From assembly GCF_050920415.1 (NCBI RefSeq), contig NZ_CP169309.1: a stretch of DNA of 64,000 nt; one strand, 5' to 3'. Numbering within the stretch: position 1 is the stretch's first letter; each line of letters begins with the position of its first letter. Both the position numbers and the translations under genes were made by a program. Below are positions 2,093-49,109 of this stretch, in pieces. This stretch comes from Escherichia coli (GTDB lineage Bacteria > Pseudomonadota > Gammaproteobacteria > Enterobacterales > Enterobacteriaceae). The notes beneath the pieces were generated by a model. It ran no database searches. It saw only the letters and a list, made by a program, of their open reading frames with translations, and had not been told where the DNA came from.

Positions 2093-2722
2093 ATGATTAG
2101 GGTTGTGCTGGTGGATGACCATGTGGTGGTGCGCTCTGGCTTCGCACAGTTACTCTCTCTGGAAGACGATCTGGAGGTCATTGGTCAGTACAGTTGTGCC
2201 GCGCAGGCATGGTCGGCATTAACTCATAATGACGTTAATGTTGCCGTCATTGATATCGCCATGCCGGACGAAAATGGCCTCAGTCTGCTTAAGCGCCTGC
2301 GTGCACAAAAACCGCAATTTCGCGCCATTATTCTTAGCATTTATGACGCGCCCACCTTTGTGCAAAGCGCGCTGGATGCCGGTGCCAGCGGCTATTTGAC
2401 CAAACGCTGTGGGCCGGAAGAGTTAGTACAGGCGGTGCGCTCGGTCGGGCTGGGCGGGCATTATCTCTGTGCCGATGCAATTCGGGCTTTACGCGGCGGC
2501 GGGCAACCTGCCCAGGCGCTGGAAATTCTCACCCCACGAGAACGTGAAGTGTTTGATTTACTGGTCAAAGGAGACAGCGTTAAAGAGATCGCCTTTAAAC
2601 TCGAACTCAGTCATAAAACGGTACATGTGCATCGCGCCAATGTGCTGGGAAAACTGAACTGCCATAGCACCATTGAACTGGTACATTTTGCGCTCGACCA
2701 CCATCTGCTGGCGGGGCATTAA
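2093..2722 (+). CDS. NarL/UhpA-family response regulator (receiver + LuxR-type HTH), UhpA paralog
   Basis: 209 aa; receiver motifs VLVDDH and DIAMPDENG; C-terminal LuxR HTH (LTPREREVFDLL...KTVHVHRANVLGKL); roughly 50% identity to UhpA by eye; stop overlaps the kinase start (TAATG). Confidence 0.85.
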   Translation: MIRVVLVDDHVVVRSGFAQLLSLEDDLEVIGQYSCAAQAWSALTHNDVNVAVIDIAMPDENGLSLLKRLRAQKPQFRAIILSIYDAPTFVQSALDAGASGYLTKRCGPEELVQAVRSVGLGGHYLCADAIRALRGGGQPAQALEILTPREREVFDLLVKGDSVKEIAFKLELSHKTVHVHRANVLGKLNCHSTIELVHFALDHHLLAGH

Positions 2723-4263
2723 TGTCGCGTAACCTTCGTCATTGGGTGATTTCGCTGTTTATTGTGCTGGCCTGGGGAAGCGGCTGGCTGATGTTGTGGA
2801 CGCTCAGCTTTTATCTGACCAATAACGGTCAACAGGCAGTGTTATTTCTGCCGCACGGAGTTTACCTCGCTCTTCTTATTTTGCTCTCTCGCCGTTACTG
2901 GCCTGCGTTGGTGCACCCCCCTTTGCTGATGATGTTCTGGCTGCACAGCGAGCAACTGTTGAACGGCTATCTCATGCTGGCAACGCCGGTTATTAGCCTG
3001 CTTCCTGCCATCCTTGCACAAAACGTCTGGCACCGTTTTCCACTTTACTGGCAGCGTCTGACGTTGCTGTTAGCCTCAGTAACAGCAGCTTCATTGCTGA
3101 ATACAGCCATGCTAACCCCTTTTATGTCAGGCCCAATAATGCTGCCCGGTCTGACCTCATTTACCGGCAGCGTATTGTTGACGCCGTTTGTCTATCTCAT
3201 CTTTGAGTTTCTGCGCCAGCAGCATCGCTATCAGCTTCTGAGACTCGATACGCATAATCCCCCCTTGCGAACCTCTTTAATCATCTGGTGTAGCCTATTT
3301 TTTATTATTGGTATCGGCACCCAGATGGTGTTGTCGCCTGAAATCGAACGCCTGCTGCTGATCGTGGTATTTCTACCCAATGTGGTCATGGCCTGGAAAT
3401 TTGGCTGGCAAGGTGGCGTACTCTCGGGGCTTTTGGGCAGCATGATGATCACTATTGCCCGCCAGATTGGCGTGGGCTTTAGTAACCTGGTGGAACTGGA
3501 GATTTTTCTCGCAACCCAGGCATTGCTGGGAATTGGCCTGGGCATTGCCATCAGTCGCCAGCAACATCTGGCGCTAAACCTGCATCATTACCGTCAGCGA
3601 CTGGAGGCAGAACTGGCAGCACGGCGGGCATTGGCTGAAAAGCTGATCCACACCGAGGAAGACACGCGTAAAAGCCTGGCTCGCGAGCTGCACGACGAAA
3701 TCGGTCAGAACATTACCGCCATTCAGATCCAGTCGCAACTGGTGACGCGGGCACGCGATCCGGCGCAAGTTCATTCCGCAGCTAGCCAAATCAACGAACT
3801 CGCCCGCCGCATTCATCTCTCCACCCGCCAGTTGCTGCGCCAGTTGCGGCCACCCGCGCTTGATGAACTGACATTCCGCGAAGCATTACTTCATCTGATT
3901 AATGAATTTGCCTTTAGTGAACGCGGCATTCATTGCCAGTTTACCTATCAACTAACCACCACGCCAGAAAACGAAACGGTTCGCTTTACACTGTATCGGT
4001 TATTGCAGGAGTTACTCAATAACGTCTGTAAACACGCCGAAGCCAGCGAAGTGACGATTATTCTGCGCCAGCAGGGAGAGATATTGCACCTGGAGGTCAG
4101 CGACAACGGTATAGGAATCGCCAGCGGGAAAATGACCGGATTTGGCATTCAGGGGATGCGTGAACGCATCAGTGCCCTGGGCGGCGACTTAACGCTCGAA
4201 AAACATAACGGTACGCGGGTAATTGTTAACCTGCCCACATTTTTGCAACAAATCGCCGGATAA
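2722..4263 (+). CDS. Sensor histidine kinase, UhpB-like (membrane MASE1-type N-terminus, HisKA_3 H-box, HATPase)
   Basis: 513 aa; multi-TM N-terminal half; H-box ELHDEIGQNITAI; ATPase motifs DNGIGI and GFGIQGMRER; translationally coupled to the upstream regulator. Confidence 0.85.
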   Translation: MSRNLRHWVISLFIVLAWGSGWLMLWTLSFYLTNNGQQAVLFLPHGVYLALLILLSRRYWPALVHPPLLMMFWLHSEQLLNGYLMLATPVISLLPAILAQNVWHRFPLYWQRLTLLLASVTAASLLNTAMLTPFMSGPIMLPGLTSFTGSVLLTPFVYLIFEFLRQQHRYQLLRLDTHNPPLRTSLIIWCSLFFIIGIGTQMVLSPEIERLLLIVVFLPNVVMAWKFGWQGGVLSGLLGSMMITIARQIGVGFSNLVELEIFLATQALLGIGLGIAISRQQHLALNLHHYRQRLEAELAARRALAEKLIHTEEDTRKSLARELHDEIGQNITAIQIQSQLVTRARDPAQVHSAASQINELARRIHLSTRQLLRQLRPPALDELTFREALLHLINEFAFSERGIHCQFTYQLTTTPENETVRFTLYRLLQELLNNVCKHAEASEVTIILRQQGEILHLEVSDNGIGIASGKMTGFGIQGMRERISALGGDLTLEKHNGTRVIVNLPTFLQQIAG

Positions 4264-4347
4264 CCAGGAAAAAGTCTTAGGCATCCCGGATTTTCTCTCA
4301 TCCTCTTTCACTTTCATTTTCATATAGTCAGCAACATGGAGACGACC

Positions 4348-5652
4348 ATGCACGCGCGTTCAGCGAGAGAGATTAATCAATGCTACCGGACATTACGTCC
4401 GCGATTGCTGATGTGCATGATTATTGGCTACGCCGCATTTTATCTGACGCGAAAAAGCGTGAATTACGTCCTTCCGGCGCTGCAAACCGACCTCGGACTG
4501 GATAAAGGCGACATTGGCCTGCTGGGTTCGCTGTTTTATCTCAGCTACGGATTGTCGAAATTTACCGCCGGACTGTGGCATGACAGCCACGGACAACGCG
4601 GTTTTATGGGCGTCGGCTTGTTCGCCACTGGGCTATTGAACGTGGTGTTTGCCTTTGGCGAATCACTTACGCTTCTGCTTGTGGTCTGGACACTGAACGG
4701 ATTTTTTCAAGGCTGGGGGTGGCCACCGTGTGCCCGCTTACTGACCCATTGGTACTCCCGTAATGAACGTGGTTTCTGGTGGGGCTGCTGGAATATGTCG
4801 ATCAACATTGGCGGAGCGATTATTCCGCTGATTAGCGCCTTTGCCGCCCACTGGTGGGGCTGGCAGGCCGCGATGCTGACACCGGGGATTATCAGCATGG
4901 CATTAGGGATCTGGTTAACGCTACAGCTTAAAGGCACCCCCCAGGAAGAGGGATTACCGACGGTGGGTCAGTGGCGTCACGATCCGCTGGAATTACGTCA
5001 GGAACAACAAAGTCCGCCGATGGGGCTGTGGCAAATGTTGCGCACCACAATGCTGCAAAATCCGATGATCTGGCTGCTGGGTGTCTCTTATGTACTGGTT
5101 TATGTGATCCGGATTGCGTTAAACGACTGGGGCAATATCTGGCTGACGGAAAGCCACGGCGTCAACCTACTCAGCGCCAACGCCACGGTAATGCTGTTTG
5201 AAGTGGGCGGCTTACTCGGCGCGTTATTTGCCGGATGGGGTTCGGATTTGCTGTTTAGCGGGCAGCGAGCCCCCATGATTTTGCTGTTTACCCTGGGGTT
5301 GATGGTTTCGGTCGCTGCACTCTGGTTGGCACCGGTTCATCACTATGCCCTTCTGGCTGTGTGCTTTTTTACTGTGGGCTTTTTTGTCTTTGGCCCGCAA
5401 ATGCTGATTGGACTTGCGGCAGTGGAATGTGGACACAAAGCTGCGGCGGGTTCAATCACCGGATTTCTCGGTCTGTTCGCCTATCTCGGTGCGGCGCTGG
5501 CAGGCTGGCCATTGTCGCTGGTTATCGAACGCTACGGCTGGTCAGGAATGTTCAGTTTACTCTCGGTCGCCGCAGTACTTATGGGTTTACTGCTGATGCC
5601 GTTACTGATGGCGGGCATCACCACCACTCACGCTCGAAGGATAAAACAATGA
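4348..5652 (+). CDS. MFS organophosphate:phosphate antiporter-family protein, UhpC-like sensor/transporter
   Basis: 12-TM MFS with strong similarity to UhpC/UhpT family (e.g. FGPQMLIG..AAVEC, GFLGLFAYLGAALAGWPL); start chosen at ATG 4348 with GGAG 6 nt upstream; in-frame alternative ATG at 4336. Confidence 0.85.
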   Translation: MHARSAREINQCYRTLRPRLLMCMIIGYAAFYLTRKSVNYVLPALQTDLGLDKGDIGLLGSLFYLSYGLSKFTAGLWHDSHGQRGFMGVGLFATGLLNVVFAFGESLTLLLVVWTLNGFFQGWGWPPCARLLTHWYSRNERGFWWGCWNMSINIGGAIIPLISAFAAHWWGWQAAMLTPGIISMALGIWLTLQLKGTPQEEGLPTVGQWRHDPLELRQEQQSPPMGLWQMLRTTMLQNPMIWLLGVSYVLVYVIRIALNDWGNIWLTESHGVNLLSANATVMLFEVGGLLGALFAGWGSDLLFSGQRAPMILLFTLGLMVSVAALWLAPVHHYALLAVCFFTVGFFVFGPQMLIGLAAVECGHKAAAGSITGFLGLFAYLGAALAGWPLSLVIERYGWSGMFSLLSVAAVLMGLLLMPLLMAGITTTHARRIKQ

Positions 5653-6680
5653 AAATGCCCCTTACCTCTACTCTGATTGCTTCTGCCGTTGCGCTGGCAA
5701 CCTTAACGGGTGCCGCACAAGCGAAAGGTCGACTGGTGGTCTATTGCAGCGCCACCAATGAAATGTGTGAGACCGAAACCAAAGCGTTTGGCGAGAAATA
5801 TGATGTGAAAACCTCGTTTATCCGCAACGGCTCCGGTAGCACCCTGGCAAAAGTCGATGCTGAAAAGAAAAACCCACAGGCTGACGTCTGGTACGGCGGC
5901 ACCTTAGACCCGCAGTCGCAGGCCGGCGAGATGGGTCTGTTACAGGCATATAAATCGCCTAACCTTGAACAGATCATGGAAAAATTCCGCGATCCGGCAA
6001 AAGTGAAAGGAAACCTTTCCTCCGCCGTTTATGTGGGGATCCTCGGGTTTGGCGTCAACACAGAGCGTCTGAAAGAGAAAAACCTGCCTGTGCCGAAGTG
6101 CTGGAAAGATCTCACCAAACCTGAATATAAAGGCGAAATTCAGATTGCCGATCCACAAAGTTCCGGTACCGCCTACACCGCGCTGGCTACCTTTGCGCAG
6201 CTGTGGGGGGAAGATCAGGCCTTTGATTATCTAAAACAACTTAACACCAACGTCTCCCAGTACACCAAATCAGGCATTGCCCCGGCACGTAACGCCGCCC
6301 GCGGCGAAACGGCGATTGGTATTGGTTTCCTGCATGACTACTCGCTGGAAAAAGAACAGGGCGCACCACTGGAGTTGATTTCCCCGTGTGAAGGTACGGG
6401 CTACGAAATTGGCGGCGTCAGCATTCTGAAAGGCGCGCGCAACCTCGACAACGCCAAACTGTTTGTGGACTGGGTATTATCAAAAGAAGCTCAGGAACTG
6501 GCGTGGAAGAAAGGGAAGTCTTATCAGATCCTGACCAATACCACCGCCGAAACGTCGCCAAATTCGCTGAAGCTCGACGACCTGAAATTAATCAACTACG
6601 ACATGGATAAATACGGTTCCACGGATGTTCGTAAGGCATTGATTAATAAATGGGTCAGCGAAGTGAAGATGGGTAAATAA
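5649..6680 (+). CDS. afuA: Periplasmic substrate-binding protein, FbpA/AfuA family (putative sugar-phosphate binding)
   Basis: Start ATG 5649 overlaps MFS stop (ATGA) with AAGGA 7 nt upstream; signal peptide MKMPLTSTLIASAVALATLTGAAQA; FbpA-fold family; track ORF 5361 is an upstream in-frame extension that overlaps the MFS gene. Confidence 0.8.
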   Translation: MKMPLTSTLIASAVALATLTGAAQAKGRLVVYCSATNEMCETETKAFGEKYDVKTSFIRNGSGSTLAKVDAEKKNPQADVWYGGTLDPQSQAGEMGLLQAYKSPNLEQIMEKFRDPAKVKGNLSSAVYVGILGFGVNTERLKEKNLPVPKCWKDLTKPEYKGEIQIADPQSSGTAYTALATFAQLWGEDQAFDYLKQLNTNVSQYTKSGIAPARNAARGETAIGIGFLHDYSLEKEQGAPLELISPCEGTGYEIGGVSILKGARNLDNAKLFVDWVLSKEAQELAWKKGKSYQILTNTTAETSPNSLKLDDLKLINYDMDKYGSTDVRKALINKWVSEVKMGK

Positions 6681-6748
6681 ACCCGCATTGCGTGCATTTG
6701 CCGGGCGCAGCACAAACGCCTGCCCCGGCCAACCATACCGGAACTGCT

Positions 6749-8827
6749 ATGTCACAGACACTTGCACTCCATCCCGTGAAAAAGCGGGATGCGATTTTCC
6801 TTTGGGTTTTGCTGGGCTGGCTGGCATTTATCCTGTTGCCGAGCTGGAGTCTCGATTATGGTCTGCTGGAGTCCACGAGTGATGAGATCCTCGAGGCGTA
6901 CAGCTGGTCGCATTTTAATATCAGCTGGCTGTGGTATTTACTCCCGAGTTTGCTGCTGGTTCGCCCGTTTAATGAGGCCAAACGCGAGCAGCGTAGCCGT
7001 CATTATTTTGATGCCGGCTGGGCATTGCTTTGTTTAGCGTTTATGGTCATCAGTGCCACCATCGTTGGCCGCGGTCTAGGCTACGCCGCCATCGTGCTGT
7101 TTATCGAATTAAGCGCGATAATGACGCTGGCCTTAACCCGCCTCGAATGGCTGGGTGGCGACCGCTTTGTGATCGGCTCGCTGATTGCGATTGTGGCGCT
7201 GATTGGCATTTTTATCGTCTGGCCGAGCATCGCCATTTTTATCCCGATGTTCACCAACGACGCGGGAGGGTTCGCCCCACTGGCGTTTATGAATGTGCTC
7301 TCGCAGGCACATATTGTTCAGGTGATCGTCAACTCCATCGTCTTATCGATAGCGGTGGGTATTGGCTGTACTTTCTTCGGTCTGGTGCTGGCGATATATA
7401 CCACGCGCATCGCCAAACGCAGCGCCGTAATCGGCCGCATCTTTTCCATTCTGCCAATTGTCACGCCACCGTTTGTGGTCGGCTTAGGCGTTACGCTCAT
7501 GATGGGGCGCTCCGGCTACATAACGGAATTTATGGTGGAGTGGTTTGGGCTGACCAACACCAACTGGCTGTATGGTTTTACCGGGATCTGGCTGGCACAG
7601 GTCCTGGCATTCACGCCAATGGCTTTTATGATCCTTGATGGGGCCATTAAAACCATTCATCCCTCGCTGGAAGAGGCCTCCTACACCCTGCGTGCCAGCC
7701 GCTGGCAAACCTTTAACGGCGTGTTTGTGCCGTTGCTAAAGCCCGCGCTCGCCAATGCCTTTTTAATCGTCGTGGTACAGTCACTGGCTGATTTCAGTAA
7801 CCCGCTGGTGCTTGGCGGCAACTTCGACGTACTGGCGACGCAAATTTACTTCTACATTACCGGCTCGCAGCTGGATTATCAGGCCGCCAGCACCCTTGGC
7901 GCTTTCCTGCTGCTGTTCTCGCTACTGGTGTTCTGCGTCCAGTATATGTGGATTGGTAAACGCTCTTACGTCACGGTTTCCGGAAAGTCCTACCGCGGCG
8001 ATGTCCAGCCACTACCGGTCACCCTGGTGTGGAGCGTGGTCGCCATACTTGCGATATGGATTGTCTTTAACGCCCTGCTCTATGGCAGCATTTTCTACGG
8101 CAGCTTCACCGTGAACTGGGGCGTAGACTACACCCTAACGCTGGATAACTTTATCAAGTTATTTGGTCAGGGGATGAGCGACGGCGCGTGGCCTTCACTG
8201 TTAGATACCTTGCTCTACGCCGGGATTGCCGCACCCATTACCGCTATCTTTGGCCTGCTCATCGCCTGGGTGGTGGTGCGCCAACAATTCAAAGGCAAAA
8301 AGACCATCGAGTTCACCACCATGTTGTGCTTTGCCGTACCGGGTACGGTGGCGGGCGTCTCGTATATTCTCGCCTTTAACAGCGCTCCGGTTTATCTCAC
8401 CGGAACGGCGGCAATTGTGATTATCTCGATGGTGATGCGTAACGTTCCGGTGGGTATTCGCGCCGGGATTGCGGGTCTGGGGCAGATCGACAAATCGCTG
8501 GATGAAGCCTCACTTAGCCTGCGTGCGGGTTCCCTGCGAACCATTACGCACATTTTACTGCCGTTGTTACGCCCAGCTATTCTCTCGGCCCTGATTTACA
8601 GCTTTGTGCGGGCTATCACGACGGTCAGCGCCATCGTCTTTCTCGTCACGCCGGACACACGCGTGGCAACCGCCTACATCCTTAACCGCGTAGAAGACGG
8701 CGAATATGGCGTAGCCATCGCCTACGGTTCGATTCTGATCGTGGTGATGCTGGCGATTATTTTCCTCTTTGACTGGCTGATCGGTGAAGCACGTATTTCC
8801 CGTTCTAAAGCCAAAAACCAGGCGTAA
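6749..8827 (+). CDS. afuB: Fused two-domain ABC permease, FbpB/AfuB family
   Basis: About 690 aa polytopic membrane protein with duplicated permease halves typical of FbpB; start at ATG 6749 is tentative (track ORF begins at GTG 6692). Confidence 0.8.
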
Positions 8828-8838
8828 TGGAGCGCACT

Positions 8839-9885
8839 ATGAGTCAGAAAAATTTTGTGGAACTGCGCAACGTCACTAAACGATTCGGCAGTAATACGGT
8901 TATCGACAATATCAATCTCACCATCCCACAAGGGCAAATGGTGACGCTGCTCGGTCCTTCCGGATGCGGCAAAACCACCATTCTGCGTCTGGTTGCCGGG
9001 CTGGAAAAACCGAGCGAAGGGCAAATTTTTATAGATGGCGAAGATGTCACGCATCGTTCCATTCAGCAACGCGATATCTGCATGGTGTTTCAGTCATACG
9101 CTCTGTTCCCACATATGTCGCTGGGCGAAAACGTTGGCTATGGGCTGAAAATGCTTGGCGTGTCGCGTAGTGAAGTGAAGCAGCGGGTGAAAGATGCGCT
9201 AGCAATGGTGGATCTGGAAGGATTCGAAGACCGCTATGTCGACCAGATTTCCGGTGGTCAGCAACAGCGTGTGGCTCTGGCCCGTGCGTTGATCCTTAAG
9301 CCTAAAGTGCTGCTGTTTGATGAGCCGTTAAGTAACCTCGATGCCAACCTGCGTCGCAGCATGCGCGATAAAATCCGCGAGCTGCAAAAGCAATTTAACA
9401 TCACTTCGCTCTATGTGACTCACGATCAAAGTGAAGCTTTCGCGGTGTCCGACACCGTGTTGGTGATGAATAAAGGTCACATCATGCAGATTGGTTCACC
9501 GCAGGATCTCTATCGTCAGCCCGCCTCCCGCTTTATGGCAAGTTTTATGGGCGACGCCAACCTGTTCCCGGCGAACTTTAGCGAAGAGTATGTCGATATC
9601 TACGGTTATCGCCTGCCGCGCGCGGCGCATTTCCCGGCGCAAGGTAGCGGCACCGTCGGCGTTCGCCCGGAAGCCATCACCTTAAGCAATCACGGCGAAG
9701 AGAGTCAGCGTTGTGTTATTCGCCATGTCGCCTACATGGGGCCGCAGTACGAAGTGACCGTAGAATGGCATGGTCAGGAGATTTTATTGCAAGTCAACGC
9801 CACCCGTTTACAGCCCGATATTGGTGAGCACTATTACCTCGAAATCCATCCTTACGGGATGTTTGTTTTAGCGGATGCGGCATAA
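8839..9885 (+). CDS. afuC: ABC transporter ATP-binding protein, FbpC/AfuC family with C-terminal TOBE-like domain
   Basis: Walker [10 protein letters not shown], signature [15 protein letters not shown], Walker B LLFDEP; start ATG 8839 with GGAG 6 nt upstream; alternative ATG 8827 overlaps the afuB stop. Confidence 0.8.
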
Positions 9886-13056: not shown

Positions 13057-13158
13057 CTTTGTTTCCAAACCCGCTGAATAATTTTTAGCGAGTATACCTG
13101 TAAACGCCGTGGGTGTATTGGGGGGCAAGTCCCTTTCGCCCCGGCTTAATAAGGCGCG

Positions 13159-14370
13159 TCAGGCATCAGCGCACGGCTGCATTCGTGATTTTCGACTCAT
13201 CAAAATAAACACCGCTAATCCAGCAACAAGAATACCCGGCGCAGATGCGGCCATTACGCCAACCGTGCCAGTGCCTAATGCCAGCATTTTCCCTGCCAGC
13301 AACGGGCCGCTCATGGCACCCAGACGCCCAATCGCCACGGCGGTTCCCACGCCGGTTGCGCGGATCTGCGAACTGTAAAACAACGGAGCCAATGCATACA
13401 AAACGCTTTGCCCACCTGTTGCAAACAACCCTGCGACGAATCCCGCCAGCAACATACCGTTAAATGATGACACCGTTCCCAGCGCTAACAGCGAAGCTAA
13501 CATACCGCTATAAATCAGTAGCGACATGGTCATTGGACGCAGTTTATCCATCAGTGCGCCCAATATTAACGTCCCGCTTGCCGCCCCCATTTGTAGTGCA
13601 AACATCACCCCTGCCGCCTGCGATGGCTGGAATCCTTGTTCCACTAAAAGCAGCGGTAGCCAGTTGATCAACATGTAGACCACCAGCAAAGTGAAGAAAT
13701 AACACAACCACAGCAGCAGCGTTGCGGTTGCCGTGTCGGGCGCAAATAACGCACGCAGCGGCGGCGCGGCCTGTTTTTCGCCAGCGAACACCGCCGACTC
13801 CGGCAGCCAGCGCATTAACAGTGGCACCAGAATCAACGGCACCACACCACCTACCCAAAACACCGTTTGCCAGGCTAAGTTTGCCCCGGCAAAACCCAGT
13901 GTCGCCGCCAGCGCCGCGCCAATGGGAACCCCGCAATACATCAGGCTCACCGCCGTTCCACGAAAACGTGGCCCCGCCGCTTCAGACGTCAGGGCGATAA
14001 GATTCGGCAACGCCGCCCCCAGCCCGACACCGGTCATTAGCCGCGCAAAGACCAGTGAGGGGAAATCCCAGGCAATAGCCGTTGCCAGCGAGAACAAACC
14101 AAACAGCGCAACTGAACCAATCAAAATGCGTTTACGACCATAACGGTCCGCCAGCATTCCGCCAACCAGCGCGCCGGGTAGCAAACCGAGTATTCCGGCA
14201 CTGAATATCCAGCCCATTTGCATTTTATCGAGTGCAAAAGCCTGGGCGATGCCACCCGCCGCAATGCCAGCCGCCTGAAGATCCAGTCCTTCCATCAGAG
14301 CGACTAAAAAACAAAGCCCGATGGTCAGCATCAGGCGGGATGAAGATGATGAAGGGGTACGAGTCGACAT
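13159..14370 (-). CDS. mhpT: 3-(3-hydroxyphenyl)propionate MFS transporter
   Basis: 403 aa from ATG 14370 (MSTRTPSSSSS...); 12-TM MFS; matches MhpT; downstream of mhpE. Confidence 0.9.
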   Translation of the reverse strand: MSTRTPSSSSSRLMLTIGLCFLVALMEGLDLQAAGIAAGGIAQAFALDKMQMGWIFSAGILGLLPGALVGGMLADRYGRKRILIGSVALFGLFSLATAIAWDFPSLVFARLMTGVGLGAALPNLIALTSEAAGPRFRGTAVSLMYCGVPIGAALAATLGFAGANLAWQTVFWVGGVVPLILVPLLMRWLPESAVFAGEKQAAPPLRALFAPDTATATLLLWLCYFFTLLVVYMLINWLPLLLVEQGFQPSQAAGVMFALQMGAASGTLILGALMDKLRPMTMSLLIYSGMLASLLALGTVSSFNGMLLAGFVAGLFATGGQSVLYALAPLFYSSQIRATGVGTAVAIGRLGAMSGPLLAGKMLALGTGTVGVMAASAPGILVAGLAVFILMSRKSRMQPCADA

Positions 14371-14449
14371 AAGATGAACCTCGTTGCGAATGCAGGTGAA
14401 TCGCGGCTGATACATTGCCAGCCGCGTAATCAAAACCATTTAATGACTG

Positions 14450-14745
14450 CCTACGGACGAAAGTAGGCCGGATAAGGCGTTTATGCCGCATCCGGCTGTC
14501 GTGCGCCATTGCCTGATTCGACGCTGACGCGTCTTATCATGCCTACAAATTCCCGCGCCATCCGTAGGCCGGATAAGACGTTTACGCCGCATCCGGCAGT
14601 CGTGCACAGATGCCTGATGCGACGCTGACGCGTCTTATCATGCCTACAAATTCCCGCGCCATCCGTAGGCCGGATAAGGCGTTTATGCCGCATCCGGCAG
14701 TCGTGCGCCATTGCCTGATGCGACGCTGACGCGTCTTATCAGGCC
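14450..14745. repeat. BIME array: about 2.8 tandem copies of a 101-bp unit built from REP palindromes
   Basis: Unit beginning GTAGGCCGGATAAG recurs at 14464, 14565 and 14666; each unit contains GCCGCATCCGGC and GACGCGTCTTATCATGCCTAC palindromes. Confidence 0.85.
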
Positions 14746-14779
14746 TGGGATGGGTATACAAAATGCACGTTGCCAGCAG

Positions 14780-15795
14780 TCAACATGATTTGTTGTTGCA
14801 CAGATCCAGCGCCACGTCGACGATCATATCCTCCTGGCCGCCGACCATCCGGCGTTTACCCAGCTCAACGAGAATATCCACCGCGCTTAAACCATAACGC
14901 GCCGCCGCCGTTTCACAGTGACGCAAAAAGCTTGAGTAAACACCAGCGTATCCCAGCGCCAGCGTTTCGCGGTCGACACGTACCGGACGATCCTGCAACG
15001 GACGCACCAGGTCGTCAGCGGCATCCATTAACGCATAGAGATCGGTCCCATGCTGCCAGCCCAGTTTATCCGCGGCGGCAATAAACACTTCCAGCGGTGC
15101 GTTACCTGCACCCGCGCCCATCCCCGCGAGGCTGGCGTCAATGCGGTCACAGCCCTCTTCCACCGCCGCGATAGAGTTCGCCACGCCAAGACTCAAGTTA
15201 TGGTGAGCATGCATGCCGGTTTGCGTTTCCGGTTTGAGCACCGCTTTCAGGGCGCGGAAACGGTCACGGATATCGCTCATGTTCATCGCACCGCCAGAAT
15301 CCACCACATAAATACAGGTCGCACCGTAGCCTTCCATCAGCTTTGCCTGTTTTGCGAGATTCTCTGGCGTGGTCATGTGGCTCATCATCAGAAAGCCAAC
15401 GGTATCCATTCCGAGTTCGCGGGCATACTGAATATGCTGAGCGGAAACATCAGCTTCGGTGCAGTGCGTAGCCACACGAACCACCCGCGCGCCAGCCTGC
15501 CAGGCATTTTTCAGATCGTGAATAGTGCCAATTCCTGGCAGCAACAATGTCGCGATTTTGGCGTGCTTCACCACATCCGCCGCAGCTTCAATCCATTCAA
15601 GGTCGCTATGCGCACCGAAACCATAGTTAAAGCTGGAACCCTGCAAACCATCCCCATGGGCCACTTCAATCGAATCCACGCGGGCATCATCCAGTGCTTT
15701 GGCAATCTGGCGGACATTTTCAAGTGAATACTGATGACGAATGGCGTGCATACCGTCACGCAACGTGACGTCTGAAATATAAAGTTTTTTACCGT

Positions 15796-15799
<4 letters not shown>
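14780..15799 (-). CDS. mhpE: 4-hydroxy-2-oxovalerate aldolase
   Basis: 339 aa; HMGL-like aldolase; matches MhpE; overlaps mhpF by 4 nt. Confidence 0.95.
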
Positions 15800-17561
<1,762 letters not shown>

Positions 17562-18428
17562 TTAAGGACGTGCGAGGAAATTCAGTACCAGTTGATTGAA
17601 AGCGTCGGCATGTTCCCACTGCGCCCAGTGACCACAGTCGCGGAAGATATGCAGCTCAGAACCGGCGATGCCAGAAAGCAGACGCAGCCCTGCGTCCATC
17701 GGCACAAAACGGTCGTTACGCCCCCAGACAATCAGAGTTTGCGCTTTGATTTCCGCCAGACGTGGGCCAAAATCCGGGAACTGTTTCGGATTGGCTTCCA
17801 GGCTCTTAACGAAGTTTTCCAGGTGATCGCGACGCGACAGCATATTATTCAGGCGCGCTTCAAACAGGGCGTCAGTCAAATCGCTGGTATCGAAAACGAA
17901 GATATCCATCATCAGCTTCAGATTTTCGATAGTCGGCTGGCGATAAAGCTGATTCAGTCGCTTAATGCCTTCAGTTGGCATCGGCGTAAACAAACTCATG
18001 CCACCTGTACCGCCGCCCATCAGCACCAGTTTGCCGACGCGCTCCGGCCAGTTAAGGGTGAACGCCACAGAACTGTGGCCGCCCATCGAGTTGCCCAGCA
18101 GGTGGATTTTGGCGATATCCAGTTGATCCACCACGCTTTTCAGGATGCGCGCATTGAGATCCGATCGCGAACCACTGTTAACGATCGAATCGCTCTTACC
18201 CCAACCAGGACAATCCAGCAGGATCACCCGATAACCAGCTTCTACCAGCGGATCGATATTGCGGCTGAAGTTCGCCCAGCCCGTAGCCCCCGGGCCGGAG
18301 CCGTGCAGCAGGACAACGGTTTCGTCGCCTTGACCGCAGTCATTAAAATGGATGCGCAGCGTTTTACCCGCTTCTTCTACATTCAGAAAACAGCTGGTGG
18401 CGGCTTCGGTTTGTGGCTGATAACTCAT
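17562..18428 (-). CDS. mhpC: 2-hydroxy-6-oxonona-2,4-dienedioate hydrolase (alpha/beta hydrolase)
   Basis: 288 aa from ATG at 18428 ([12 protein letters not shown]...); GNSMGG nucleophile elbow; alternative in-frame starts at 18443 and 18491. Confidence 0.9.
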
Positions 18429-18445
18429 CATCTTCTCCTGCATAT

Positions 18446-19390
18446 TCAGTTCTCTGTTCTGGCGCTTAACGAGCCAAATCCGGCAATCCACTCCGGGATC
18501 GGGCGGTAATAACGCCCTTCGCTACGCCAGTTGCCAAACGCAGAAATAGCGGCAAAAGCAGCGACCCAGGTTTTGATTTCATGTGTCGACTTTCCTGCAA
18601 TGGCGGAAAGCTCTTCGTTACTGACGGCATCCAGTTCCTGTATGCGTCCCTGCTCCAGCAAAGACATGAACTGGTTATCCCAAATCGGGTTGAGCGGATG
18701 CAGAGTTCTCTGATCCTCAACAAACCTCTCAGCGGCGCTAATCACCCGTTGCTGGCGCATTTCGCGCTCATTGGCGGGCAAATCTTTCCCGCTACCCAAC
18801 AGACGATCGCGCATATGGGCATCCGCTTTCGCCAGTTCTGGCACCGGCGGCTGATGGGAAAGCCCACCGGAACCCAGGAACAGCACGCGCTTATTCAGCG
18901 TACTGGTGAAACGTCCAATGGCTTCACCCAACATGCGGGTACGCTGAAAACCAGGTAGCGGCATGGCGACACCGTTGATGAATACAGGCAGGACCGGCAC
19001 CTTATCCAGCCCACCGAGCAAGAACTCCAGCGGCTGGGCGAACCCATGATCCACCTGCATACAGTAAGAAACGGCAAGATCAATCCCGCTCTTCATGACG
19101 GCATGCGCACAAGCCTCCGCCAACTCCACAGGCACAGGAAGCTCTCCTGCCGCACTGCCGAAATCGCCAATTGCCGTCGCCCCAACGCCTAAACAGAAGG
19201 GTGGCATCACGTCATAGAAAAAACCGTTGTAATGATCTGGCGCAAACAGCACCACCAGTTCAGGGGAGAAGGCCGCAATACGCTCGCGGGCACTGGCAAT
19301 CACGCCATTGACCTCATCAAGTATCTCTTGCGCCGGGTCGACATACCCTACCAGCGGCGAGTGGGAAAGACAGTGAAGATAAGCGTGCAT
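18446..19390 (-). CDS. mhpB: 3-carboxyethylcatechol 2,3-dioxygenase (extradiol)
   Basis: 314 aa; matches MhpB; start abuts the mhpA stop. Confidence 0.95.
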
Positions 19391-19391
19391 A

Positions 19392-21056
19392 TCAGGCTAC
19401 CTTTTCGACAGAAACGTCGACATCAGGGCGGTTGAGTGTCATCACGGACGCCAGTTTATTCAGCGTATTACCCAGAGTTTGCGGAATGGCGATGGCGGCA
19501 ACAAAGCGATCCGGGCGCATCACCACCAGCGAAGCATTATGTTGTGCGAACCAGCTACGCAGGCGACCTTGCGTATCGCCCACGCGCAGCACGCCGTCGT
19601 AGTTATCCTGCGCGGTATGAATTTGCACATCCGGCACCACCTGAATGAAGCGAGTACCCAGCGCGCGCCATTGCTGGATTTGCTCATCGCTCATCCCCCA
19701 CAGTGGATTGCATCCCCAGCCAATTACCGCGAAGTTCGCGCCGATCGCGTTATCGAGCAACGTCACGTCGCCGTTTTCCAGCGTGACTTTCGGCTGAATA
19801 AACATCTTGCCGACCGGAGAGTGCTTCGCTTCGCCTTCACGCACCAGCGCACCGGCGTAATATTGCGGCATCGGCTTGAAGCGCATTTCGAGAAAGTAGC
19901 GTTTTACTGGCGGTAGATAATTCAGCAGCCAGGAAACACCGTCACGTAACGTACCCTGCCAGCGTTTCGGCGGAGCCAGTACGTTGCCCGCCGTCACCGA
20001 CAGATCAATCATCGCTTTGGCGTGATCGCGACGTTCTTGTTGATAGGTATCGAGCAGCGCATCGCGAGCTTTCCCCTGGATAACCAACGCCAGTTTCCAG
20101 GCGAGGTTAAAGGCGTCGCGCATACCACTGTTATAGCCCTGCCCCTGCCACACCGGCATGATATGTGCGGCATCGCCCGCCAGCAGTACGCGGTCAATAC
20201 GAAAACGTTGTGCCAGTCGCGCGTTGTGGGTGTAGACACGCTGGCGAATCAACTCGACGTTGTCCGGATTAGGCAGCACTTTGCTTAACAGCTTGCGCAT
20301 ATTTTGCGGCTCGCGGAGCTGTTCTTCGGTTTCGCCCGGCATCACCATAAATTCAAAGCGACGTACCGCATGAGGCAGAGCCGCAGAAACATACGGGCGC
20401 ACCGGATCGCAACACAAATAGATATGCGGCGTACTTAACGGATCGTTGGCGATATCCACCACAATCCACTGATTTGGTGCGGTTTTACCTTCAAACGGCA
20501 CATTCAGGGTGCGCCGGACAAAACTTGCTCCACCGTCACAGGCTACCAGCCACTGGGCTTTGACCGTTTCCCGCTGCCCTTCTGCCGTTTTCAGATACAA
20601 GGTCACTTCGTCATCTTGCTGGCTAAAGGCCTCCAGCTCGCGGGAAAACAGGCAGCGCACATTCGGAAACCGCGATAACCCTTCCAGCATCACCGCATCG
20701 ACCTGCGGCTGAATAAAGGCGTTACGACGCGGCCAGCCAAATTCATCGGTCATTGGCTGAATATCAGCAAAACAGCGGCCTTTTGGGGTAAGAAAACGCA
20801 TCGCATGCCACGGCGTAGTGTGCGGCAGAACATTATCGACAAGGCCAACCGACTGCATGGTGCGCAGCGCCTCGTCATCAATTCCAATCGCGCGTGGATA
20901 GTCGATCAACTTATCGAGTTTCTCCACCACCAGCACGTCAATGCCCATCTGGCCGAGATAGTTCGCCATCATCAGCCCGACCGGACCGGCACCAGCGATC
21001 GCCACCTGAACGCAATGGTTAACAGCAGGCTGGATGTCAGGGTGTTGTATTGCCAT
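19392..21056 (-). CDS. mhpA: 3-(3-hydroxyphenyl)propionate hydroxylase (FAD monooxygenase)
   Basis: 554 aa; FAD-binding GAGPVG motif; matches MhpA; first gene of the mhp catabolic operon. Confidence 0.95.
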
Positions 21057-21197
21057 TTCAGTACCTCACGACTCGGAAAAAATGCCGTTGCGCGCACAGT
21101 TCAACGCAACTTATTTTGTTAAAAACATGTGAATGATTTTTTATTGTGCGCTCAGTATAGGAAGGGTGTTTTCGGCTACAATCGAAACATGCCTGAG

Positions 21198-21214
21198 TGT
21201 GCACCAAGTGCACA
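21198..21214. promoter_or_regulatory. Candidate MhpR operator palindrome in the mhpR-mhpA divergent region
   Basis: TGTGCACCAAGTGCACA: perfect 7-bp arms TGTGCAC/GTGCACA around a 3-bp centre; resembles the MhpR site as I recall it. Confidence 0.45.
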
Positions 21215-21246
21215 ACGTTGTTTTAACTATAGAAATGTCAATTAAT

Positions 21247-22080
21247 ATGCAGAAAGATGAGCAGACGGAATACAAAACCGTGCGCGGCTTAACCCGCGGT
21301 CTAATGTTATTAAATATGTTAAATAAACTCGATGGCGGTGCCAGCGTCGGGCTGCTGGCGGAGCTCAGCGGCCTGCATCGCACCACTGTGCGGCGACTGC
21401 TGGAAACGCTGCAGGAAGAGGGATATGTCCGGCGCAGTCCCTCCGATGACAGTTTTCGTCTGACCATCAAAGTGCGGCAATTAAGCGAAGGATTTCGTGA
21501 CGAACAATGGATTTCTGCACTGGCAGCCCCGCTGCTGGGCGATCTGTTGCGCGAAGTGGTATGGCCGACAGATGTGTCCACGCTGGATGTTGATGCAATG
21601 GTGGTACGCGAAACCACCCACCGTTTCAGCCGTTTATCCTTTCACCGGGCAATGGTCGGGCGACGTTTACCGCTTCTGAAAACCGCCTCGGGCCTGACCT
21701 GGCTGGCCTTTTGCCCGGAACAAGAACGCAAGGAGTTAATCGAAATGTTAGCCGCCCGCTCCGGTGATGACTATCAGCTGGCACGGGAGCCGTTAAAGCT
21801 GGAAGCCATTCTGGCGCGCGCACGCAAAGAGGGTTACGGACAGAACTATCGTGGCTGGGATCAGGAAGAGAAGATCGCCTCCATTGCCGTGCCCCTACGC
21901 AGTGAACAACGGGTGATTGGCTGTCTGAATCTGGTGTATATGGCGAGCGCAATGACCATCGAACAGGCAGCGGAAAAGCATCTTCCGGCGCTACAACGGG
22001 TAGCAAAACAGATCGAAGAAGGGGTTGAATCGCAGGCTATTCTGGTGGCCGGACGGCGAAGCGGCGTGCATTTACGCTAG
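21247..22080 (+). CDS. mhpR: IclR-family transcriptional activator of the mhp operon
   Basis: 277 aa from ATG 21247 (MQKDEQTEYKTVRGL...); IclR HTH plus effector domain; divergent from mhpA. Confidence 0.92.
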   Translation: MQKDEQTEYKTVRGLTRGLMLLNMLNKLDGGASVGLLAELSGLHRTTVRRLLETLQEEGYVRRSPSDDSFRLTIKVRQLSEGFRDEQWISALAAPLLGDLLREVVWPTDVSTLDVDAMVVRETTHRFSRLSFHRAMVGRRLPLLKTASGLTWLAFCPEQERKELIEMLAARSGDDYQLAREPLKLEAILARARKEGYGQNYRGWDQEEKIASIAVPLRSEQRVIGCLNLVYMASAMTIEQAAEKHLPALQRVAKQIEEGVESQAILVAGRRSGVHLR

Positions 22081-22194
22081 TTGCGCCAATGTGTAATTTG
22101 GCCCATTCTCATCGTTATTCGCCCATTTGCCCACATGCACAGTACGGGCTGCACGCTACGCTAATGCCATCAATACTGTGATGTGGAGCAAATC

Positions 22195-22971
22195 ATGAAA
22201 ATTACTCAAATTCGTAATGCCACCCAAATTATCCAATACGCTGGCAAAACATTTCTTATTGACCCGTTACTCGCGCCTAAAGGAAGTTATCCGGGTTTTG
22301 CCGGAACGGCACGCGCAGAAATCCGCAATCCAACGGTAGAATTACCGTGCGATTTAACAACGTTACTCAACGTTGACGCCCTAATAGTGACCCATTTGCA
22401 TGAAGATCACTGGGACGAAACAGCCTCCCGCGTCGTCCCCAAAGATAAACTGATTTATGTGCAAAATGAGCAAGATGCTGAATCACTGCATAAACAAGGA
22501 TTTACGCATCTTACCGTACTTGCCGACGAGACTAAATTTGGCGATATTACTCTGCATAAAACGACAGGGCAGCACGGCTCCGATCGCACCTATGCAGACC
22601 CGGCTATGGCGAAGCGTTTAGGCGCAGCCTGCGGCGTTGTTTTCCAGCACCCGACAGAGAAAACGCTCTATCTGGCTGGCGATACCCTCTGGCGTGATGA
22701 CGTCGAGGCTACAATGCTAACTTTCCAACCAGAAGTGGTGGTGTTGAATGCCGGATTTGCGCATGTTCTGGGGCATGGCGCGATAATTATGGGAGCTGAA
22801 GATATTCTCAAAACACATTTTACCCTGCCAGAAGCGCAAATTGTCGCGACACATATGGAGGCCGTAAACCACTGTTTGCTGACGCGTGATGCGCTCAAGG
22901 AATACGCCAGAGATAATCAAATTATCGAATTTGTGAACGTACCAGAAGATGGTGAAACGTTGACATTCTAA
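22195..22971 (+). CDS. Metallo-beta-lactamase-fold hydrolase (accessory, not at this locus in K-12 as recalled)
   Basis: 258 aa from ATG 22195 with GGAG 6 nt upstream; HxHxDH-type motif region (VTHLHEDHWDE); track ORF starts at an upstream GTG. Confidence 0.8.
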   Translation: MKITQIRNATQIIQYAGKTFLIDPLLAPKGSYPGFAGTARAEIRNPTVELPCDLTTLLNVDALIVTHLHEDHWDETASRVVPKDKLIYVQNEQDAESLHKQGFTHLTVLADETKFGDITLHKTTGQHGSDRTYADPAMAKRLGAACGVVFQHPTEKTLYLAGDTLWRDDVEATMLTFQPEVVVLNAGFAHVLGHGAIIMGAEDILKTHFTLPEAQIVATHMEAVNHCLLTRDALKEYARDNQIIEFVNVPEDGETLTF

Positions 22972-22990
22972 TTCGGAGATAAAGAGTGTT

Positions 22991-23944
22991 ATGCGCCCGC
23001 TAACTGTTGCCATTATCGCCGTTGCCGGTTTTAGTCCTTTTCACCTTTCCGTACCGTTTATCGTGTTTAGCGAAAAAATGGCGGAGAAAAAACGCTTTCA
23101 TGTAATTATCTGCGCTGAAAAGCCGGGAAATGTGGACTCTGCCGATGGGTTTTCCGTAACCGCCACCCATGACTATACGGCAGTCATCCAGGCGGATATT
23201 GTGATAATTCCTTACTGGGGAACAATTACACAAAAACCGCCACAAAAACTGCTGGAAGCCTTAACGACCGCACGAGATAACGGGGCACAGATTGTCGGGC
23301 TTTGCCTGGGCACGTTTGTGCTCGGCTATGCAGGTTTACTGAACAATAAGCGTGCTGCCACGCACTGGGAGTTCGAGCGTGAATTTCAGGCACGTTTTCC
23401 ACAAACACATCTGGATATTAACGCGTTGTATGTAGACGATGATGGCATTATTACCTCTGCCGGTACTGCCGCGGCGCTGGATTGCTGTTTGTATATTGTT
23501 CGGCAACATTTTGGCAGCGACTATGCTAACCATATTGCCCGACGGATGGTCGTACCGCCATATCGCACCGGCGGTCAGGCGCAGTTTATAGAGCAACCGG
23601 TGCCGAAAAATACCCATGATGAACGCATTAACCTCCTGCTGGATTACCTGCGGCAAAACATTGCGCAACAGCATGATCTCGACTCGCTGGCTCAGCGAGT
23701 AATGATGAGTCGCCGCACACTAACCCGTCATTTTATGAAAGCGACCGGTTCGAGTATCGCCGAATGGCTCATCACTGAACGCTTACGCCGTAGCCAGGAA
23801 CTGTTGGGATCCAGTCAGTTGCCCGTTGAGCGGATAGCGGCTGAGGTGGGTTTTCTCTCACCTGTGACCTGGCGTCAGCATTTTAAATCTCACTTCGGCG
23901 TCAGCCCCGCAGAATGGCGCAAAACCTTTCGTGGTATGGCATGA
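22991..23944 (+). CDS. GlxA-type transcriptional regulator (DJ-1/PfpI-like domain + AraC-family HTH)
   Basis: 317 aa; N-terminal class I glutamine amidotransferase-like fold; C-terminal AraC HTH (RTLTRHFMKATGSSIAEWLITERL...); stop TGA 23942-23944 lies inside the lacI -10 hexamer. Confidence 0.8.
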   Translation: MRPLTVAIIAVAGFSPFHLSVPFIVFSEKMAEKKRFHVIICAEKPGNVDSADGFSVTATHDYTAVIQADIVIIPYWGTITQKPPQKLLEALTTARDNGAQIVGLCLGTFVLGYAGLLNNKRAATHWEFEREFQARFPQTHLDINALYVDDDGIITSAGTAAALDCCLYIVRQHFGSDYANHIARRMVVPPYRTGGQAQFIEQPVPKNTHDERINLLLDYLRQNIAQQHDLDSLAQRVMMSRRTLTRHFMKATGSSIAEWLITERLRRSQELLGSSQLPVERIAAEVGFLSPVTWRQHFKSHFGVSPAEWRKTFRGMA

Positions 23945-23945
23945 T
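23917..23945 (+). promoter_or_regulatory. lacI promoter (-35 GCGCAA, 17-bp spacer, -10 CATGAT)
   Basis: Matches the classic constitutive lacI promoter as recalled; -35 at 23917-23922 and -10 at 23940-23945, 36 bp upstream of the lacI GTG. Confidence 0.7.
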
Positions 23946-23980
23946 AGCGCCCGGAAGAAAGTCAATTCAGGGTGGTGAAT

Positions 23981-25063
23981 GTGAAACCAGTAACGCTATA
24001 CGATGTCGCGGAGTATGCCGGTGTCTCTTATCAGACCGTTTCGCGCGTGGTGAATCAGGCCAGCCACGTTTCAGCGAAAACGCGGGAAAAAGTGGAAGCG
24101 GCGATGGCGGAGCTAAATTACATTCCCAACCGCGTAGCACAACAGTTAGCGGGCAAACAGTCGTTGCTGATTGGCGTTGCCACCTCCAGTCTGGCCCTGC
24201 ACGCACCGTCGCAAATTGTCGCGGCGATTAAATCTCGCGCCGATCAACTGGGTGCCAGCGTGGTGGTGTCGATGGTAGAAAGAAGCGGTGTCGAAGCCTG
24301 TAAAGCGGCAGTACACAATCTTCTCGCGCAACGCGTAAGTGGTCTGATCATCAACTATCCGCTGGATGACCAGGATGCCATTGCTGTGGAGGCAGCCTGC
24401 GCTAATGTTCCGGCGCTATTTCTTGATGTCTCTGACCAGACTCCCATCAACAGTATTATTTTTTCCCATGAAGACGGTACGCGGCTGGGCGTAGAGCATT
24501 TGGTCGCATTGGGTCACCAGCAAATCGCGCTGTTAGCGGGCCCATTAAGTTCTGTCTCGGCGCGTCTGCGTCTGGCGGGCTGGCATAAATATCTTAAACA
24601 CAATCAAATTCAACCGATAGCGGAACGGGAAGGCGACTGGAGCGCCATGTCCGGTTTTCATCAAACCATGCAGATGCTGAATGAGTGCATCATTCCTACC
24701 GCGATGCTGGTTGCCAACGATCAGATGGCGCTGGGTGCAATGCGCGCCATTACCGAGTTCGGGCTGCGCGTCGGCGCGGATATCTCGGTAGTGGGATACG
24801 ACGATACCGAAGACAGCTCGTGTTATATCCCGCCATTAACGACCATCAAACAGGATTTTCGCCTGCTTGGGCAAACCAGCGTGGACCGCTTGCTGCAACT
24901 CTCTCAGGGGCAGGCAGTGAAGGGCAATCAGCTGTTGCCCGTCTCACTGGTGAAACGAAAAACCACCCTGCCACCCAATACGCAAACCGCTTCTCCCCAG
25001 GCGTTGGCTGATTCCTTAATGCAGCTGGCGCGACAAATTTCCCGACTGGAAAGCGAGCAGTGA
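23981..25063 (+). CDS. lacI: Lactose operon repressor
   Basis: 360 aa from GTG 23981 (MKPVTLYDVAEYAGVSYQTVSRVVNQ...); LacI/GalR HTH plus periplasmic-binding-fold core; track ORF begins 3 codons upstream. Confidence 0.97.
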   Translation: MKPVTLYDVAEYAGVSYQTVSRVVNQASHVSAKTREKVEAAMAELNYIPNRVAQQLAGKQSLLIGVATSSLALHAPSQIVAAIKSRADQLGASVVVSMVERSGVEACKAAVHNLLAQRVSGLIINYPLDDQDAIAVEAACANVPALFLDVSDQTPINSIIFSHEDGTRLGVEHLVALGHQQIALLAGPLSSVSARLRLAGWHKYLKHNQIQPIAEREGDWSAMSGFHQTMQMLNECIIPTAMLVANDQMALGAMRAITEFGLRVGADISVVGYDDTEDSSCYIPPLTTIKQDFRLLGQTSVDRLLQLSQGQAVKGNQLLPVSLVKRKTTLPPNTQTASPQALADSLMQLARQISRLESEQ

Positions 25064-48152: not shown

Positions 48153-49109
48153 TTAAACCACCCGATCCAGCCCCAACATGCCGCGAGCCTGAATGAAACA
48201 GAGCAGCAACGTTCCCCATAAGGCCATCGTCAGGTAGGGGCTTATCCCGAGAATATTGAAGCCGCTTTCAATAATTTGCAGAAGAAACAGCGCCAGCACC
48301 ATACCAATTATCCGCCCGCTGCCGCCGTCCGGATTAACCCCGCCGAGTACTGCCGCGAGGATTGACACCAGCAAGTACGATTCGCCATAAGAGGCCTTAG
48401 CCGAGTTGAGTTTCGACATCATCAAAAATGCCGCTACCGCACAAAGCAAGGCGGAAATGACATACACCCATATCAGCACCCGACGCGTGTTAATACCGGA
48501 GTAAAGTGTTGCTCGTTCATTAGAACCAATCAGATAAATGGATTTACCGAGCGGTGTTTTCTCCAGCAATATCCACAACCCCAGCGCCACTGCGGTAAAC
48601 AACCACATCGGTAGCGGAATACCGAACCACTGTGCATGATTCAACCACAGCACCCATGAGGGATAATTAGCAATGGCGCTACCGCCTGTCACCAGAATAT
48701 TTACTCCTTTGAGCAACGTCATCATCCCAAGCGTTGCAAGAATTGGCGACACTCGAATACCGGCAATCAATACGCCATTACATAAACCAATTATCACCGC
48801 CGCGCCAGCGCCCGCCAGCAGCGTAGCGACAACCGTAGCAATACCCGGTGGATACTGAGTCGCCACCCACGCCATCACCAGTGAACAGGCGTTAGCAGTG
48901 GCAATAATTGACAAGTTAATGCCACCGCAAAGCATGGTCACCGCCATAGCCAACGCCAGAATGCCCAGCACGGGCATTTGCGAAGCGACGGACTGGAAAT
49001 TACTTATCGACCAGAAAATCTCCGGCATAGTAATGCTGAAGGCGGCAACAGTTAGCACCAGCAGGCCGATCAAGTAAAACTCAACGTTATTACGCCACGA
49101 TTTTTTCAT
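48153..49109 (-). CDS. Carbohydrate ABC transporter permease (CUT2/RbsC-like), second of two
   Basis: About 318 aa multi-TM protein; start ATG 49109 overlaps the upstream permease stop (ATGA); accessory relative to K-12. Confidence 0.85.
   Translation of the reverse strand: MKKSWRNNVEFYLIGLLVLTVAAFSITMPEIFWSISNFQSVASQMPVLGILALAMAVTMLCGGINLSIIATANACSLVMAWVATQYPPGIATVVATLLAGAGAAVIIGLCNGVLIAGIRVSPILATLGMMTLLKGVNILVTGGSAIANYPSWVLWLNHAQWFGIPLPMWLFTAVALGLWILLEKTPLGKSIYLIGSNERATLYSGINTRRVLIWVYVISALLCAVAAFLMMSKLNSAKASYGESYLLVSILAAVLGGVNPDGGSGRIIGMVLALFLLQIIESGFNILGISPYLTMALWGTLLLCFIQARGMLGLDRVV

Follow-up and report, generated by a model that had tools for sequence, protein, structure and literature searches.

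The lacI promoter of Escherichia coli appears to be the coding tail of another gene. In a 64,000-nt stretch of E. coli DNA (contig NZ_CP169309.1 of assembly GCF_050920415.1; hereafter the window), two genes lie between mhpR and lacI. One encodes a metallo-β-lactamase (MBL)-fold hydrolase that resembles SaxA; the other is ovrA, which encodes a GlxA-type regulator and whose last codons and stop hold the hexamers assigned to the lacI promoter. The pair corresponds to O-island 19 (OI-19) of enterohaemorrhagic E. coli (EHEC). We consider the following account, taken as a whole, very probable: OI-19, a SaxA-type hydrolase gene plus ovrA, is an ancestral module, the lacI promoter lies inside ovrA, and the module was later lost in separate deletions.

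The two genes are known and the type of event is ordinary; what it is attached to is a textbook promoter. The link between this promoter and a gene remnant, the ancestral standing of OI-19 and the SaxA assignment all appear to be unreported in the searchable literature. Among searchable papers, only an unrelated preprint on CRP and lacI was returned for the lacI promoter in connection with a gene remnant or mhpR, and none linked the hydrolase gene (z0443) to SaxA.

lacI promoter hexamers in the coding tail of ovrA

The genes mhpR (21247-22080), the hydrolase gene (22195-22971), ovrA (22991-23944) and lacI (23981-25063, GTG start) are consecutive and all on the + strand. The hydrolase gene, orthologous to z0443, encodes 258 aa and matches Pfam Lactamase_B_2 at 6e-11. 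The 317-aa product of ovrA, the z0442 orthologue, carries a DJ-1_PfpI domain (residues 6-171, 7e-12) followed by HTH_18 (residues 233-311, 3e-19), the two Pfam domains and the order expected of a GlxA-type AraC regulator. Identity with FtrA was rejected: the match to the NCBIfam equivalog NF006902 reaches 324 bits against a cutoff of 425 bits, which places OvrA in a related subfamily. An earlier note on this DNA, made without database searches, had placed an MBL-fold hydrolase gene and a GlxA-type regulator gene between mhpR and lacI, and the open reading frames (ORFs) and Pfam matches bear this out. Its placing of the genes and hexamers also stands, with one small correction: the TAG stop of mhpR occupies 22078-22080, and this stop forms the left edge of the segment absent from K-12-type genomes. 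E. coli strain MFDS1022581 is 100% identical to the window over the mhpR-lacI region.

The gap between the ovrA stop and lacI is only 36 nt, and the putative lacI promoter reaches back across it into ovrA. The −35 hexamer GCGCAA (23917-23922, + strand) overlaps the W-R-K codons of the ovrA end, and the −10 hexamer CATGAT (23940-23945, + strand) contains the TGA stop of ovrA (23942-23944). This overlap had been described in the earlier note, and a script check found it exact to the base, with a spacer of 17 nt. The assignment of the hexamers is that made for lacI in K-12 (Calos 1978, through its citation and use in PMC7049694), and the NheI site said there to overlap the −10 element is consistent with CATGAT. 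For the window strain the promoter is thus a prediction carried over from the K-12 literature. The window differs from K-12 by two bases over the promoter and leader, a C>T in the spacer at 23932 and a G>A in the leader at 23958; the hexamers, their spacing and the length of the leader to the lacI GTG are the same, whereas in the window the promoter sits within live coding sequence.

Hexamers and 17-nt spacing are identical in the window, K-12, O157, B2 strains and Klebsiella plasmids. A 41-nt promoter block is conserved at least as well as the lacI coding sequence: in a Klebsiella plasmid it retains 39/41 positions (first 300 nt of lacI, 285/300), and in Citrobacter sedlakii 38/41 (lacI, 255/300). 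The ovrA tail just upstream of the block is more diverged in the Klebsiella plasmid (44/53 matches). The bases that survive in K-12 encode, in frame, the C-terminal motif of the regulator family, SP.EWR(K/R)TF(R/G)G, which recurs in Aeromonas, Geomonas, Marinobacter, Massilia and others. Since this motif is conserved family-wide, the K-12 '−35 region' consists of conserved codons. The lacIq mutation, which we take to be the change from GCGCAA to GTGCAA, would in the ovrA frame replace the conserved Arg codon CGC by TGC, a predicted R310C substitution in the EWRK motif.

Promoters that lie within the 3′ end of an upstream coding sequence, and gene remnants that lineage-specific deletions leave behind, share the general architecture described here: the downstream gene has its promoter in the coding DNA of its upstream neighbour, and a short pseudogene stub persists because a functional site is part of it. 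Unlike those cases, the stub at lacI belongs to a textbook element and has outlasted three or more separate truncations, one of them on mobile plasmids.

A deletion scar upstream of lacI in K-12

The earlier note had suggested from the K-12 lacI promoter sequence that K-12 carries a deletion remnant, and had proposed an alignment with the K-12 mhpR-lacI interval. That alignment places the deletion at 22078-23911: in K-12-type genomes these 1,834 nt are replaced by a 10-nt filler, TGACACCATC. K-12 lacks both genes; of the regulator gene only the 3′ end is left, with the ten final codons (E W R K T F R G M A) and the stop codon (23912-23944, + strand). In the K-12 derivative ET12567, mhpR and lacI are 76 bp apart with no gene in between, and the junction reads ...CATTTACGT TGACACCATC GAATGGCGCAAAACCTTTCGCGGTATGGCATGATAGCGCC... 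From GAA (23912) to 23944, K-12 matches the window with 1 mismatch in 33 nt, and because the O157 allele is exactly the K-12 sequence over this 33-nt tail, the match reflects homology rather than chance. Only 5 nt of ovrA-derived DNA remain upstream of the −35 hexamer.

K-12 MhpR is unchanged in length, its stop being a TGA supplied by the filler versus TAG in the window. The filler also creates a perfect TTGACA hexamer (ET12567 locus L001 1678-1683). The lacIq1 mutation, presumably a deletion of 15 bp by which a TTGACA comes to lie at the −35 position, would draw on this very hexamer. Junction models based only on microhomology were rejected, as some 7 of the 11 filler bases agree with neither flanking sequence.

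The missing 1,834 nt equal the published size of OI-19, which in strain EDL933 comprises 1,834 bp with z0442 (ovrA) and z0443 (PMC8565820 and PMC10877973). Together with near-identical proteins, this equality means that the two genes are already named and studied, established knowledge that the earlier note had missed. Compared with O157:H7 TW14359, the window OvrA is identical at 316/317 aa and the hydrolase at 255/258 aa, and the Prokaryotic Genome Annotation Pipeline (PGAP) labels the O157-type allele 'ovrA: OI-19-encoded virulence regulator OvrA'. The codon differences from O157 are 23 synonymous and 1 nonsynonymous in ovrA, and 11 synonymous and 3 nonsynonymous in the hydrolase gene; purifying selection acts on the module genes where they are kept. 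Window and EHEC O157:H7 EDL933 thus share the site between mhpR and lacI, the size, and the AraC-type helix-turn-helix of OvrA. They differ in that the O157 allele is ~2% diverged, almost entirely at synonymous positions, and in that the window strain stands outside the O157 lineage. The literature presents OI-19 as O157-lineage-specific with z0443 of unknown function, whereas here it looks ancestral, includes a SaxA-like gene and carries the lacI promoter in its ovrA tail.

Separate truncations in E. coli and on plasmids

A survey of presence and absence was run across 5,426 complete E. coli genomes, with allele counts that depend on the megablast coverage thresholds. The hydrolase-ovrA pair is intact in 435 of them (8%), while 4,390 have the K-12-type junction, whose filler is unchanged even where the mhpR background is diverged. 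A B2-type junction is found in 487, and 114 are unclassified (by subtraction). No partial or intermediate forms occurred among these genomes, the 922 matches to the island query being the sum of the 435 intact and 487 B2-type alleles.

In B2 strains (among them ATCC 25922, Nissle 1917 and the type strain), yaiL is followed by a 99-nt remnant of the ovrA 3′ end and then by lacI. The interval absent from these genomes, ~10.7 kb (13122-23845), runs from mhpT past mhpR and the hydrolase gene into ovrA, of which it takes the first 855 nt, so that the whole mhp cluster is removed as well. PGAP annotates the 99-nt remnant as a partial GlxA-family pseudogene.

A third form is found on ~1,290 plasmids, mostly large Klebsiella ones, whose lac operon is ~92% identical to that of E. 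coli. Homology begins at window position 23859, leaving an ovrA stub of ~86 nt with substitutions and a 1-nt deletion that shifts the frame; Klebsiella pneumoniae Kp52.145 plasmid II (locus L084 3001-3120) is an example. The stub marks the capture of the mobile Klebsiella-type lac operons from a chromosomal ovrA-lacI context.

There are thus at least three separate truncations (K-12, B2 and plasmid), and all breakpoints lie upstream of the −35 hexamer, presumably because loss of the promoter would abolish repressor synthesis. Every E. coli- or Citrobacter-type lacI examined is preceded by an ovrA tail or the relic of one.

Ancestral module or acquired island

Current reviews treat OI-19 as specific to O157 and absent from K-12 (PMC10877973, PMC8565820). 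On that view, the O157/O145 lineage acquired the genes horizontally, with insertion into the mhpR-lacI interval of a K-12-like ancestor, and the match between the ovrA tail and the promoter is a by-product. The rarity of the genes among complete genomes fits such a history. So does their GC content at third codon positions (GC3): 0.45 and 0.51 for the two module genes against 0.59-0.62 for mhpR, lacI and lacZ. The values for lacY and lacA are as low as those of the module genes, which tempers any inference of foreign origin. Insertion does not explain why the 33 nt kept in K-12 encode the in-frame EWRKTFRG end of the family, nor the longer, in-frame 99-nt remnant in B2.

Outgroups were sought by scanning one genome per species, followed by tblastn on the matched loci. 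The closest relatives of the ovrA module outside E. coli are in Citrobacter, at 76-80% aa identity, where the gene order is mhpA-mhpR-(..)-hydrolase-regulator-(..)-lacI-lacZ. The module has diverged there (~77-80% aa) to a similar degree as LacI (81-84%) and LacZ (~80%). In C. sedlakii the layout is just that of E. coli: the ovrA-lacI gap is ~36-40 nt, the protein ends in FRGMA*, and CATGA spans the stop. At the module borders in the window we found no mobility genes, tRNA genes or repeats, and Rfam gave no match within the hydrolase-ovrA-lacI promoter interval. The module therefore fails as a horizontal island, being present in synteny in Citrobacter and lacking border features, and only the lower GC3 dissents. 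Insertion into a K-12-like ancestor seems extremely improbable, and the sequence comparisons already contradict it.

The evidence favours a loss from K-12 over a gain by O157. Deletion is preferred to insertion because of the Citrobacter synteny, the 99-nt B2 remnant, the conserved codons retained in K-12 and the want of island hallmarks, and the direction proposed in the earlier note is borne out on these same grounds.

Other Citrobacter loci depart from the E. coli layout. Genomes of the C. freundii complex have an ORF of 251 aa (~750 bp) on the minus strand between ovrA and lacI (Citrobacter sp. FP75, L012 6948-7703), and the same ORF occupies equivalent positions in loci L004, L007, L008, L011, L013 and L017. 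By eye, and from a GCG-type motif only, its product looks like a methyltransferase. In this complex a second, decayed copy of the ovrA tail likely still precedes lacI, most plainly in Citrobacter sp. MGH106. The coding part of that copy aligns with a score of 18 in most loci, against 15 ± 2 for shuffles, and with 31 in L008; combined alignments show a graded decay. C. youngae ATCC 29220 (L014) carries an internally deleted version with an ovrA-lacI gap of 158 nt.

Several observations weigh against the favoured account, the low GC3 among them. ovrA is absent from all other Escherichia species representatives in the genome scan, so that ancestry within the genus rests on Citrobacter. A source for the filler TGACACCATC did not emerge: the window holds one match with 1 mismatch, as expected by chance, and among 91 loci the filler was found in K-12-type loci alone. 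A single origin of the K-12-type deletion would follow from one feature alone, the identical junction. A simple consensus promoter scan misses the lacI promoter, which matches only 6 of 12 consensus positions. Finally, the published role of OvrA is activation of the LEE1 promoter in the locus of enterocyte effacement (LEE), and z0443 is given as of unknown function, its deletion having no virulence phenotype (PMC8565820).

The hydrolase and its putative regulator

The hydrolase aligns with SaxA (PDB 6BRM) over its whole length (E 4e-88, 54% identity, residues 1-258 to 1-259) and keeps the SaxA motifs THxHxDHWD, GQHGS, AGDT and HME..NHC. In ~65 of the 80 closest loci across Proteobacteria, a SaxA-like gene is adjacent to an ovrA homologue, either co-directional or divergent. 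The gene of the crystallised SaxA is itself followed, in the same orientation, by a gene for a DJ-1_PfpI+HTH_18 regulator 57% identical to OvrA. The suggestion in the earlier note that regulator and hydrolase may form a small sensing and detoxification unit gains support from this adjacency, from the SaxA homology and from the OvrA-like gene that follows the characterised saxA.

With the SaxA system of the P. syringae and Pectobacterium sax genes (PMC7036374, PMC12903958), the E. coli pair shares an MBL protein of the same length, the metal-binding motif and an OvrA-like regulator in the same order. The two differ in setting: the characterised saxA stands in a cluster ordered isochorismatase - LysE exporter - saxA - GlxA-type regulator (L089-L091 2232-8780), with the isochorismatase being SaxB-like and a Tn3-family transposase nearby, whereas the E. 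coli pair is alone in a core chromosomal position. The 6BRM saxA cluster adjoins a resolvase and the Tn3-family transposase and recurs in 308 index blocks, which makes it a mobile form of the module.

Upstream of the hydrolase gene, a 39-nt block, TTGGCCCATTCTCATCGTTATTCGCCCATTTGCCCACAT (22098-22136, + strand), is shared by E. coli, nine Citrobacter loci and Kluyvera, with partial conservation in Erwinia; all sequence upstream of it differs between genomes. The block contains GCCCAT/GCCCAC repeats and is a candidate for the module promoter or an OvrA operator.

On balance, we predict that z0443 encodes an isothiocyanate hydrolase of the SaxA type, a claim for which the odds seem somewhat favourable. 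The competing view is that the hydrolase has some other function and that there is no detoxification unit: the job of OvrA would be virulence control through LEE1, with z0443 a passenger. OvrA does bind the LEE1 promoter and activate ler (Liu et al. 2020, J Infect Dis 221:820, following the summaries in PMC8565820 and PMC10877973), and the lack of a virulence phenotype on deletion of z0443 agrees with a passenger gene. An identity of 54% does not guarantee the same substrate, and no specific NCBIfam model exists for the hydrolase, the best match being far below cutoff. Against this stand the preserved metal-binding motif and the same neighbour in the same order at the characterised saxA. Moreover, the LEE is absent from the C. 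freundii group, Aeromonas, Marinobacter and other taxa that keep the pair, so that LEE control cannot be the pair's conserved role. The passenger view therefore strikes us as rather unlikely.

A broader reading, which we offer tentatively and regard as rather unlikely, makes OI-19 an ancestral enterobacterial isothiocyanate-response module of a SaxA-type hydrolase and a SaxC-like sensor-regulator. OvrA would sense isothiocyanates from dietary Brassica, or related electrophiles, relay the signal to LEE1 in EHEC and modulate LacI; the lacI promoter and the lacIq and lacIq1 sites would be exapted codons plus a deletion scar. In this reading, OvrA could affect the level of Lac repressor because no terminator separates ovrA from lacI.

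A proposed internal promoter and possible read-through

The favoured account can be set out as a sequence of events. Before the split of Escherichia and Citrobacter, a self-contained module of two genes would already have stood between mhpR and lacI. In this ancestral layout, a weak sigma-70 promoter for lacI would have lain within ovrA, its −35 on the conserved W-R-K codons and its −10 across the stop, and in all contexts lacI transcription would start from inside the ovrA tail. Double duty as codons and promoter may have held this promoter weak. OvrA would control the hydrolase through the conserved upstream block, and the hydrolase would degrade isothiocyanates. Most E. coli would later have lost the module through a 1.83-kb deletion that brought the mhpR end next to the final 33 nt of ovrA, giving the K-12 type. 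B2 strains would have undergone their separate 10.7-kb deletion, with 99 nt left, and Klebsiella-type plasmids would have carried ~86 nt away.

Read-through from hydrolase and ovrA could add to lacI expression and, in K-12, would come from mhpR. A stronger form of this idea holds that in strains with the intact module lacI is expressed mainly by such read-through (from mhpR in K-12), the hexamers being minor until the deletions made them the sole promoter. From mhpR through the module to lacI, the + strand shows no terminator-like site; the ovrA-lacI gap is short; the promoter matches the consensus poorly; and z0443 is highly expressed, with a 10-fold dependence on RpoS, in EDL933 (PMC2907692). 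This stronger form is hard to reconcile with the hexamers and spacing being identical in intact, K-12, B2 and plasmid contexts, with a block that is conserved at least as well as lacI even where it is no longer coding, and with the K-12 promoter having been characterised (literature) with just those 5 nt of ovrA-derived DNA upstream of its −35. We regard read-through as the main route as unlikely. An internal promoter and read-through are mutually compatible and do not exclude each other.

Other features of the window

Between tauA and frmR (2093-9885), the window carries an accessory cluster with a response regulator, a MASE1 sensor kinase, a UhpC-like receptor and an ABC transporter (binding protein, permease and FbpC-type ATPase). 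It presumably replaces the yaiS/yaiP/yaiO region of K-12, and we take it to resemble the AfuABC sugar-phosphate uptake locus, O-island 20 (OI-20). PMC2907692 assigns the 'response regulator' Z0463 to OI-20. The mhpE-mhpT intergenic region (14466-14745) holds three tandem elements of the repetitive extragenic palindromic (REP) type, matched by Rfam naRNA4 (RF02564) at 71-84 bits. Further along, a sugar ABC transporter with a binding protein annotated 'autoinducer 2' lies between yahK and yahJ (48153-52586), and an ASCH-domain gene (~52840-53250) follows just downstream. The window ends within the start of the ehaA autotransporter adhesin gene (63559-64000).

Implications

These comparisons give a concrete evolutionary origin to a widely used regulatory part: the lacI promoter would be the coding tail of another gene, surviving at least three independent truncations. 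They explain the 76-bp size of the K-12 'mhpR-lacI intergenic region', and they suggest a reason for the promoter's poor match to consensus, as its place in conserved codons would have barred free evolution. They also correct the view of O-island 19 as an acquisition of the O157 lineage. For z0443, the SaxA likeness offers a testable function, isothiocyanate hydrolysis, which would bear on the survival of EHEC on Brassica produce and in foods treated with mustard or allyl isothiocyanate (AITC). The same function may bear on which signal OvrA senses when it activates the LEE.

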